From: Eledone cirrhosa
Lineage: Eukaryota
Length of the DNA: 64,000 bases
Direction: 5' to 3'
Assembly: GCA_964016885.1 (NCBI GenBank)
Contig: OZ024758.1
Location: forward strand, 17,174,001 to 17,238,000
In this document: piece by piece, positions 3,505 through 57,013 of the stretch
Position numbering within the stretch: position 1 is the stretch's first letter
How the letters are laid out: every line of letters begins with the position of its first letter
Notes under the pieces: model-generated
What the model was told of the DNA's origin: nothing
Databases searched by the model: none
What the model saw: the letters and a program-made list of their open reading frames with translations, nothing else
Program-made: the position numbers and the translations under genes

Positions 3505-3695
3505 TTAATATAGATGAGATTCTACAGGACTAGAACTGTTTCATTCTTTAGAAATCATCAGGAATCGCTGATGATTTCTAAAGAATGAAACAGTTCTAGT
3601 CCTGTAGAATCTCATCTATATTAAAACTTTTATACTCTGCAATGTATTGAGTACCTTACTTACTGTGGTTACCTCCGATTCAACCCGGAATAACG
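3505..3695. mobile_element. Hammerhead-bearing Penelope-like mini-element (family H1): 57-bp perfect inverted arms plus ~70-nt tail, in (TA)n
   Basis: Arms 3505-3561 and 3568-3624 around loop GAATCG. The right arm continues into a tail shared with 56860-56993. Confidence 0.75.
3518..3566 (-). ncRNA. Type I hammerhead ribozyme (H1)
   Basis: Minus strand: GATTC-CTGATGA-T-TTC taaa GAA-T-GAAA-CAG ttctagtc CTG-TA-GAATC. Stem I is GATTC/GAATC and the cleavage triplet is GUA. There is a U.U at the base of stem II. Confidence 0.7.
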
Positions 3696-4040
3696 TATAT
3701 ATATATATATATATATATATATATATATATATATATATATATATATATATATATATATATATATATGTGTGGAAGTTAGTAAAATCGAAGTTGTGGCGCT
3801 CAGCCAGCATCCACGAAAGAAAACAATATTCGGAGCTTTTCACAAAGCACACAATAAGAAGATATTGATAAATTGCTAAGTTATATCTTAGAGTAATAAA
3901 CATACGTTAAAGGCATGACAAATTGAAAGCTGTGGTTAAGGGGACAGAGCCACAGAGGCCACCACAACAACGAAAATATAATCAGGTTAAATAACAAAGT
4001 AAATACGAAGTAATTTCAGATGTTAAAGTCATTTATTGAT

Positions 4041-4122
4041 AAAGCTGTGATACATATTTCATATGATGACAGTGGCCAAGCGATTCCGCCTAACCAGTGC
4101 CATGATCTCATCAGACAGCTTC
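4041..4122 (-). ncRNA. Minimal type I hammerhead ribozyme with long stem II (family H3)
   Basis: Minus strand: AAGCTGT-CTGATGA-[gatc ATGGCA c TGGTTAGGCG gaat CGCTTGGCCA c TGTCAT catat]-GAAA-TATGT-ATC-ACAGCTT. Stem I is 7 bp, the cleavage triplet is AUC, and stem III is very short and quasi-palindromic. An inverted repeat links ~4010-4043 and ~4215-4249. Confidence 0.7.
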
Positions 4123-4521
4123 TTACATGATAAGGTTACGTTCTCAAGGCAATCTAAATTGAAACAACAAAGGAACTGACACAGATGATGTTCTTCAAGC
4201 CTTCACTCATCCGTTTATCAATAAAAGACTTTAACATCTGAAACTACTCACATTTTCTTATTATAAAATACTCTGTCACTCCTATGTGGAAAAAGAGTGT
4301 TGTGTGCTTATTTTGAATTGCATCAATGTTTACCATAAGTATATATAAATATAGATGATGATGATGGTGGTGGTGGTGGTGGTGGTGGTGATGCTGATGC
4401 TGCTGGTGGTGGTGGTGGTGGTGGTGGTGGTGGTGATACTGCTGCTGGTGGTGGTGGTGGTGGTTATGGTGGTGATGATGATGATGATGATGATGATGAG
4501 ATATATATGTATATATATGTG

Positions 4522-55800: not shown

Positions 55801-56859
55801 TAATATATATATATATATATATATATATATATATATATATATAAATGAAAAGTATAGAAATTATTGTAGCAAGAAGCAAACAGTATTCCGTAATATATAA
55901 TATACTACTATAATAATAATAATTGTTTCTACTTTAGGCACAAGGCCAGCAATTACCCAGTGCATTACTGGTACATTATTTTATCGACCCCGTAAGGATG
56001 AAAGGCAAAGTCAACCTCGGCGGGATTTGAACGCAGATCGTAAAGGGACGTAACTATGCTGGAAAGCATGGCGTCCGACCCTCTACCGATACTGTCAAAT
56101 AATATATATATATATGTAGGCACATGGCTTAGTGGTTAGAGCATTGGCCTTGCAATCGAAAGGTTGTGAGTTCAATTCTCGGACAGGGTGATGTGTTGTT
56201 TCCTTGAGCAAGAGACTTTATTTCACATTGCTCCAGTTTACTCAGCTGTAGAAATGAGATGATAGGGACTGGGGTCCATATCATTCCACTGCAAAGTGGA
56301 ATGATATGGACCCCAGTCTCTATGACAAAAAGCACTCAGCACTCACTGTAAATGTGGTTGGTGTTAGGAAGGGCATCCAGCTGTAGAAATCAAGCCAGAA
56401 TCAGTTCCCGTCCCACCCTTGCAAGCAGGGAAAAGTGGACGTAAAATGATGATGATGATGATATATATATATATATAATATATATATATATATATATATA
56501 TATATATATATATATATATATATATATATTATATAATATAATATACAGGTATATATATTCTTATACACACACATATATATATATATATATATATATATAT
56601 ATATACAGATATATATACATATACTCATGCACCTACATATATATATATATATACATACAGATGTGAATATATATCTATATATATATATATGTATGTGAGT
56701 ATAAGAATATATTCTTATACTCACATACATATATATATAGATATATATTCATATACACACACACATACATATATATATATACACAGATATATATATTCAT
56801 ATACACACACACATGCATACAAATATATATATAAATACCATATTTATTTTTTGATACCC

Positions 56860-56910
56860 AGATTCCTGATGATTTCTAATGAATGAAACAGTTCTAGTCC
56901 TGTAGAATCT
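56860..56910 (+). ncRNA. Type I hammerhead ribozyme (H1), predicted cleavage after 56904
   Basis: AGATTC-CTGATGA-T-TTC taat GAA-T-GAAA-CAG ttctagtc CTG-TA-GAATCT. The element continues to 56993. Confidence 0.72.
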
Positions 56911-57013
56911 CATCTATATTAAAACTGTTATACTCTGCTATGTATTGAGTACCTTACTTACTGTGGTTACCTCCGATTCAACCCGGAATAACGTATATAT
57001 ATATATATATATA

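Follow-up and report, generated by a model that had tools for sequence, protein, structure and literature searches.

Hammerhead motifs in a 64-kb window of the Eledone cirrhosa genome as probable ends of several Penelope-like families and of a 1.3-kb non-coding passenger

We analyzed the hammerhead ribozyme motifs of a 64,000-nucleotide stretch of Eledone cirrhosa DNA (hereafter the window; positions are counted from its first letter). We propose, with a probability of roughly 85%, that several Penelope-like families and a 1.3-kb non-coding passenger gave rise to these motifs as their hammerhead-bearing ends, likely pasted into TA microsatellites by an element-encoded reverse transcriptase (RT)/GIY-YIG endonuclease and mostly cut short within about 150 bases. 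The bulk of this finding is known biology at an unusual scale, with about 2×10^5 complete hammerheads in 3 Gb. An earlier note, made from the letters of the window, had described the sites as unrelated mini-element families that share only the catalytic core, a description that we revise below; the link that it drew to Penelope-like elements is supported. The window is AT-rich, contains many (TA)n and SINE-like repeats, and encodes no Penelope protein. The sites, assigned to families H1 to H6, are the following:

3505–3566, minus strand: H1 inverted arm with a short 3′ end; complete type I hammerhead at 3518–3566.
3567–3695, plus strand: H1 forward arm, core intact (3568); the inversion junction has eliminated the 5′ strand of stem I; tail hairpin at 3634–3654; long end at 3695 before (TA)n.
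3997–4213, minus strand: H3 arm, an end fragment of the 1.3-kb non-coding unit; hammerhead at 4041–4122 with a long imperfect stem II and stem III AUAUGUAU; short end.
4214–4345, plus strand: H3 opposite arm, starting a few nucleotides 3′ of the cleavage site; degenerate tail hairpin at 4270–4307; long end.
8461–8512, plus strand: H2 3′ half in (TA)n, truncated inside stem II, mutated; short end.
27534–27740, plus strand: family H6, putatively the end of an old Penelope element; its minimal hammerhead core (27595) now reads AAAA in place of GAAA through decay.
28991–29124, minus strand: H4 inverted arm; intact type I hammerhead at 29038–29108 with a 12-bp stem I; short end.
29125–29359, plus strand: H4 palindromic junction (29125–29164) and forward 3′ half; tail hairpin at 29274–29300; long end.
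29701–29907, plus strand: H2 head-to-head pair; inverted short arm at 29701–29759, forward 3′ half at 29775–29907 with tail hairpin at 29846–29871.
29922–30150, minus strand: family H5, putatively a Neptune-type Penelope end; the minimal hammerhead at 30009–30044 has core mutations.
39345–39406, plus strand: degenerate copy of H1 type with a short end; the core persists and stem I is disrupted.
39495–39690: H2-related head-to-head pair, with a long end on the minus arm (39505–39624) and a short end on the plus arm (from 39630); truncation falls within stem II in each arm.
48979–49103, minus strand: H2-related copy; full-length but decayed U3-A8 hammerhead at 48993–49087; short end.
56830–56993, plus strand: H1 single copy; complete hammerhead at 56860–56910, tail hairpin at 56932–56952, long end before (TA)n.

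The type I folds of H1 at 3518–3566 (minus) and 56860–56910 (plus), the degenerate H1 copy at 39345–39406, the H3 hammerhead at 4041–4122 (minus), which folds once the stem II criterion is relaxed, and the mutated minimal motifs at 27584 (H6) and 30009 (H5) all agree with the earlier description. Among the four H2 sites reported there as half-ribozymes, those at 8461, 29798 and 39642 are indeed 3′ halves, while the one at 48979 proved to be full-length (48993–49087, minus), with a UUGAUAA core and decay in stems II and III. What had been called an H4 remnant at 29125–29175 is an inversion junction, and the left arm of that pair holds the intact fold at 29038–29108 (minus). Core boxes, three stems and a NUH site occur together in the window for H1 (two copies), H3 and H4, and in genome copies for H2 and H5. 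A further hammerhead family, absent from the earlier list, has a degenerate copy with a mutated core at 28665–28715 (88% to a copy in locus L206), and at 30566–30678 lies a stub that begins with a 22-bp palindrome and comprises just the tail of an H4-cluster element (hairpin at 30595–30615).

Other repeats in the window include LINE reverse transcriptase fragments at 784–2004 (minus), 53432–54628 and about 57000–58624 (plus), presumably RTE-like, one of which begins immediately after the TA run of an H1 copy. A tRNA-like Rfam match at 4524–4591 (33 bits) is probably a SINE head; SINE copies are numerous and form derived tandem arrays at 12963–14110 and 31522–32207. Young tandem arrays at 34705–36956, 37150–38603 and 50722–52025 (units of 96, 307 and 93 bp) gave no hammerhead match.

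A type I descriptor matched the window at six positions; 60 block-wise dinucleotide shuffles gave 0.37, and none of them reached six. Three of the six are the H1 sites at 3518–3566 (minus) and 56860–56910 (plus) and the H4 site at 29038–29108 (minus); the remaining three are units of a 543-bp array, which falls outside the present finding. The strictest setting left three sites against 0.00 in shuffles. The same kind of search, which the earlier note had proposed with a shuffled control, was applied to 59 10-kb stretches (60 planned) taken at round coordinates of the 3.0-Gb assembly, and yielded 46 C3-G8 hammerheads in 590 kb against 0–4 (mean 1.4) in eight shuffles. Chance matches in AT-rich, microsatellite-rich DNA would fit the behavior of the bare CUGANGA word, which is not enriched in the window (30 versus 26.9), and of the U3-A8 descriptor alone, which remains at chance level in the sample (10 versus 3–13 in shuffles); yet they leave the C3-G8 excess unexplained and are refuted by the family counts, since every site listed above belongs to a dispersed genome-wide family, and we give this interpretation practically no weight. 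An Rfam scan of the window contained no hammerhead among the best 150 of its 303 matches, only AT-repeat noise.

The sampled density of 78 hammerheads per Mb (95% bootstrap 51–108) extrapolates, roughly and from these 59 stretches, to about 226,000 per genome (145,000–318,000), where up to 120,000 have been reported for the axolotl (PMC7229834). Sampled hammerheads fall in 20 clusters, with a richness estimate of about 42. This bears out the very large and diverse population anticipated earlier. The window itself is not unusually rich, six hammerheads in 64 kb being typical at the sample density. Palindromic stem III regions are likewise the rule, 38 of the 46 sampled hammerheads being at least 75% self-paired and 29 fully so. 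At the family level, we counted 16,924 exact genome copies of an H1 29-mer, 13,817 of a 29-mer from the H2 3′ half and 27 of an H3 23-mer, with at least 46 matches for H3 from 40 of 1,795 candidates scored. The H5 family has 3,544 copies with an intact minimal core; most H5 copies are intact-cored, unlike the mutated one in the window at 30009–30044. Reversed-pattern controls were 0 for H1, H2, H3 and H5. H6 gave at least 48 matches at 74–84% identity, from 40 of 815 candidates scored; both canonical core halves are kept in 3 of 14 relatives, and most changes are CpG decay.

Longer genome copies connect these motifs to protein-coding elements. A complete H2 element in locus L197 carries hammerheads at 4806 and 7924, 3,118 bp apart, in flanking repeats that are 98% identical, and between them an intact 719-aa RT/GIY-YIG open reading frame (ORF), for an element of 3.1 kb. 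H1 and H2 hammerheads both sit in the repeat flanking a Hydra-type ORF. H1 copies extend upstream into a long 3′ region and then into the endonuclease, and in tandem H1 copies (L199) the cleavage site precedes the ORF start by 136 nt; the H1 ORF was pieced together from two overlapping parts at different loci, L199 and L043. Both proteins contain the RWR (K to R), DKT, YRDD, CxCx5C, YIG, CxxC and CxH motifs, and no CCHH spacing was seen on reading their endonucleases. This set matches the Hydra-clade definition given in section 11 of PMC8557442, the likeness being judged by eye and by motifs against reference proteins available as supplement text; Pfam gave only a sub-threshold GIY-YIG match on the Penelope proteins. 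Pseudo-LTRs with a hammerhead, an inverted truncated copy, a tail and a (TA)n target complete the resemblance, and we therefore assign H1 and H2, on these sequence features, as 3′ ends of Hydra-clade Penelope-like elements. The two families are not unrelated, their parent proteins being 51% identical. H4-cluster hammerheads lie 1.2–1.4 kb 3′ of Hydra endonucleases in L205 and L207, a tie that rests on same-cluster relatives and not on the H4 subfamily of the window. In L031, L041 and L044 the H1 region between endonuclease and ribozyme spans 2.6–3.2 kb, is largely TA/CA low-complexity and is common to the copies, so that the element may itself spread microsatellite-rich DNA.

H5 and H6 appear to belong to non-Hydra Penelope clades, an assignment that rests on degenerate endonuclease fragments. 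A Neptune-type endonuclease lies upstream of H5 in three loci (L232, and the same region in L253 and L101); in L232 the CX2-5CxxC linker and the histidines are present and the position of the second cysteine is a stop. Upstream of H6, a degenerate CCHH-type GIY-YIG endonuclease was read by motif in L222 (E = 0.037), in a region shared with L214 and L215. Both of these families (30009 and 27584), also classed earlier as mini-elements, apparently sit downstream of Penelope endonucleases of other types. Another hammerhead family, whose stem III is not always palindromic, was observed 200–310 nt 3′ of a CCHH-type GIY-YIG endonuclease in L022, L038, L063, L101 and L106.

If each family were instead a short stand-alone ribozyme mini-element, 100–200 bp long and SINE-like, the small size of most copies and the clustering of H1 and H2 5′ ends described below would follow directly, and H3 is indeed non-coding. 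Longer copies nonetheless run unbroken into 3′ UTRs and ORFs, which contradicts this reading for H1 and H2, and neither a promoter nor a fixed unit was seen for the stubs. In addition, the full hammerhead fold is present in 22 of 30 H1 loci, while only 1 of 30 H2 3′-half loci keeps the 5′ ribozyme half, so that a typical H2 stub cannot form a ribozyme. We consider this interpretation very unlikely. H1 and H2, and H4 by its relatives, are better described as 5′-truncated ends of multi-kilobase protein-coding Hydra-clade elements.

H3 alone is non-coding, and its unit is much larger than the term mini-element suggests. Upstream sequence of H3 leads back to its own tail: six complete hammerhead-to-hammerhead units found among 30 loci measure 1,289–1,411 nt, are 76–91% identical, gave no match (E ≤ 1) when compared with six Penelope protein queries, and contain ATG-initiated ORFs of 58–103 aa at the longest. 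An apparent ORF end upstream of H3 proved to be the start of the unit itself, and a possible parent considered for H3, a fragment of a Hydra RT next to one of its copies in L296, is a separate insertion. Some H3 loci are longer than one unit and circularly permuted. The head-to-tail non-coding organization with one type I hammerhead is that of a retrozyme; the unit size lies outside the retrozyme ranges of 150–450 bp and up to 972 bp, size not being a mechanistic criterion. Taken together, these features identify H3 as a putative non-autonomous passenger, a large retrozyme-like element. Elements of this size have probably been under-counted, as the published retrozyme search did not extend to such lengths. 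A narrow literature search, confined to the accessible parts of the sources, returned no mention of a 1.3-kb animal retrozyme. Tandem growth was also observed in L286, where a 74-bp piece of the H3 unit forms an array of about 40 copies at 4800–8020. The 543-bp array of the window (43251–44818) consists of about 2.6 non-coding units, each with a minus-strand type I hammerhead (descriptor hammerheads at 43422–44589), and also carries an inverted 147-bp arm.

The anatomy of the insertions is common to these families. Relative to the cleavage site, 3′ ends are bimodal, at +15–28 and +87–92 in H1, +20 and +103 in H2, and +56–64 and +126–128 in H3, and distinct head-to-head pairs combine one short and one long end in 88 of 98 cases where 48 are expected (H1 28/30, H2 44/49, H3 7/10, H4 9/9). 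Short ends fall just before a tail hairpin, and long ends 30–60 nt after it. This hairpin, of the form RCUC-inner stem-2 nt-GAGY-RC, is present in H1–H4 and in further clusters, with no match in several clusters, the H5 example included. H1–H4 therefore share more than the catalytic core: the hairpins of H1 and H2 contain an identical 11-mer, and the stem III AUAURUAU is common to H3 and H4. The outer stem switches between ACUC/GAGU and GCUC/GAGC, and the inner stems of nine representatives pair at 23 of 27 positions against 16.0 in permutations, a p-value that is optimistic because the representatives are hand-picked and related and the outer stem was required. Several of them are predicted not to fold as drawn in isolation. 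The end of the coral element Hydra-2_Amil shows the G-C form (PMC8557442 supplement). The same hairpin (G-C form) lies between the two ends of the 543-bp array, about 190 nt from the ribozyme, which indicates that the ends track the hairpin. In L317, L322 and L329 the H3 long end is immediately followed by a second tail hairpin (G-C form), about 60 nt from the first one.

At the other side of the insertions, tail-anchored 5′ boundaries of H1 lie at −39 to −45 in 18 of 26 copies, with none within 10 nt of the cleavage site; those of H2 lie at −29 to −45 in 31 of 47 copies, with four within 10 nt. The boundaries of H3 (n = 8) and H4 (n = 14) show no clustering. Cleaved templates have therefore left no genomic trace, as 5′ ends are not piled at the cleavage site. 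The half-ribozymes are accounted for by the clustering of H1 and H2 5′ ends about 40 nt upstream of this site, from which it also follows that the templates were uncleaved or re-ligated.

We envision that the element enzyme would nick both strands of (TA)n and bind the tail hairpin, one cDNA starting just before the hairpin and another 60–90 nt further on. The two cDNAs may then stop or snap together inside the folded ribozyme, which would produce the inverted stubs and half-ribozymes. With templates that would consist mostly of RNA left uncleaved or re-ligated, insertion can probably proceed without cleavage, and the ribozyme would likely serve to reduce tandem transcripts to single units now and then, assisted by dimerization or by a protein. 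These steps have a precedent in the anole element studied in vitro, in which two internal start sites, both strands and uncleaved RNA are used and ribozyme mutants still insert (PMC11167929).

Families with intact cores do exist, as the earlier note had foreseen, although the H2 core is UUGANAA or CUGANAA and not CUGANGA. A canonical C3-G8 pattern for H2 was rejected, with eight copies only, whereas a pattern allowing Y3 and R8 has 6,681 genome matches. A8 is present in 6,629 of these and, by subtraction, G8 in 52; position 3 is U in the 5,070 U3-A8 copies and C in 1,559 C3·A8 copies; position 7 takes all four bases. H2 copies look halved because they truncate in stem II and because their core is U3-A8, a variant with a precedent in Schistosoma (about 1,300; PMC4209133). 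The full U3-A8 ribozyme is predicted to adopt the active fold at minimum energy, while in other families the active fold is calculated to lie 0.3–9 kcal/mol above the minimum. In this young family, none of 16 pairs shows double changes in the alignment. L129 (2380 and 2975) contains a second family with a U3-A8 core, a palindromic stem III and tandem units 595 bp apart.

The G8A change in the hammerhead core is inactivating. The 3-8 pair is Watson-Crick in H1, H3, H4 and H5 (C3-G8) and in the 5,070 U3-A8 copies of H2, and absent from the 1,559 C3·A8 copies, in which this core pair is broken (PMC3884650). The ribozyme of the C3·A8 subfamily is thus predicted to be crippled, and the subfamily has nevertheless been amplified to 1,559 copies, as would be allowed if cleavage is dispensable for insertion. 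The subfamily is not a product of decay, because C3·A8 is found in both arms of four head-to-head pairs, accompanies Hydra ORFs about 90% identical to those of H2, and groups 12 of 13 C3·A8 copies, with one C3-G8 copy, in a clade with 99/95 support. This tree uses 38 of 74 rows, 34 having been dropped for unlike or short upstream sequence and two for lack of the 3′ half; a first tree was confounded by TA tails. A third (59 rows, with outgroups) places C3·A8 basal to the youngest U3-A8 clade with poor support, its bootstrap not having settled, and scatters the C3-G8 rows. The narrow search of accessible sources also returned no mention of an amplified C3·A8 subfamily.

RNA editing is heavy in cephalopods. 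The H2 core could be switched on by A-to-I editing at A8, edited RNAs being cut and only unedited ones inserted. Inosine pairs with C or U and would leave position 3 free to vary, in agreement with the near-constant A8 beside U or C at position 3 and with a supported C3·A8 clade that carries Hydra ORFs. On the other hand, G8 copies are few and the C3-G8 rows scattered, which neutral decay would predict; positions 3 and 8 form a tertiary contact and no duplex; and dispensable cleavage explains the pattern more simply, which makes editing a doubtful proposition with a slim chance at best. An equally slim chance attaches to the compound hypothesis in which host editing, by letting inosine at position 8 pair with C3 or U3, selects the RNAs to be cut or reinserted, and in which Hydra enzymes mobilize both their own RNA and passengers of up to 1.3 kb with the conserved tail hairpin, instead of the ribozyme, as the signal. 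Its hairpin half is far more likely than its editing half: taken by itself, we find it rather probable, somewhat beyond even odds, that the hairpin and not the ribozyme is the signal by which Hydra enzymes would move their own RNA and that of passengers.

A further reading is that the ribozymes cut and re-ligate unit-length RNA circles that serve as templates for rolling-circle reverse transcription, as is known for animal retrozymes (PMC7229834). Inserts that read through the cleavage site, the permuted H3 loci exceeding one unit and the predicted active minimum-energy fold of the full H2 ribozyme are consistent with it. Tandem masters would give the same pattern, however, the repeats within an H3 locus are more alike than those across loci in only two of six units, and a core predicted to be dead was well amplified. 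We hold this reading to be possible, at less than even odds; it is compatible with the Penelope-end explanation that we favor and is most plausible for H3 and the 543-bp array.

Much of what is described here is already in print, namely hammerheads at Penelope ends, their mass occurrence, opposite-strand pairs, the U3-A8 core, octopus Hydra elements and retrozymes as Penelope passengers; the accessible text of PMC13282606 contains no occurrence of the word “ribozyme”. The unusual parts are the 1.3-kb non-coding passenger and the 1,559-copy subfamily with a core predicted to be broken. The closest known relatives are the elements of the Hydra clade (Craig et al. 2021, PMC8557442), including Hydra-1_Obim of Octopus bimaculoides, with the same single RT and GIY-YIG ORF, the same RW-K/R, DKT, CxCx5C, CxxC and CxH motifs as H1 and H2, the same hammerhead with palindromic stem III near the 3′ end, and the same (TA)n targets and inverted 5′-truncated copies. 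As in H1, the stem II base of many of their hammerheads (File S2, octopus included) is a U·U. The H1–H5 motifs have no match in the available supplement of that paper, pointing to new families, and the U3-A8 and C3·A8 cores present in H2 are absent from the File S2 rows compared. Tails are 60–90 nt here against 30–40 in the Hydra clade, the H2 element measures 3.1 kb and the H1 3′ region about 3 kb against less than 3 kb in total for Hydra elements, and the copy numbers, in tens of thousands, are unlike those of that clade.

The minimal hammerheads of metazoan Penelope elements (Cervera and de la Peña 2014, PMC4209133) share with ours the thousands of dispersed single motifs, the opposite-strand pairs 100–700 bp apart, the many consensus families and the palindromic stem III, and H5 fits their minimal type. 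Unlike these, H1 and H2 have a stem III of at least 5 bp and can close as monomers; a C3·A8 subfamily is not mentioned in the accessible part of that paper. Animal non-LTR retrozymes (PMC7229834; Li et al. 2026, 10.64898/2026.07.22.740005) resemble H3 in their non-coding head-to-tail units, one type I hammerhead and Penelope-type ends. The 1,289–1,411 nt of H3 compare with 150–450 bp in the former report and 51–972 bp in the latter, whose search was limited to a 1,000-bp period, and H3 is dispersed as fragments and 1–1.5-mers and not as arrays like known retrozymes.

Finally, the Poseidon element of Anolis, PAc (Frangieh et al. 2024, PMC11167929), has the same two internal start sites defining the tail, and the likeness extends to the cutting and extension of both strands, the AT-rich target, the use of uncleaved RNA and the insertion of ribozyme mutants. 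PAc belongs to another clade and starts in an AC-rich stem-loop inside the ORF, whereas the 3′ ends described here bracket an RCUC/GAGY hairpin upstream of the start codon; the short-plus-long rule for inverted pairs is not described in the accessible text on PAc. The sister subfamilies U3-A8 and C3·A8, both amplified, constitute a natural experiment on hammerhead function in Penelope-like elements, and the intact 719-aa H2 element lends itself to purification. With two fixed ends on either side, the hairpin is a candidate RNA signal read by the enzyme, common to autonomous elements and non-coding passengers.
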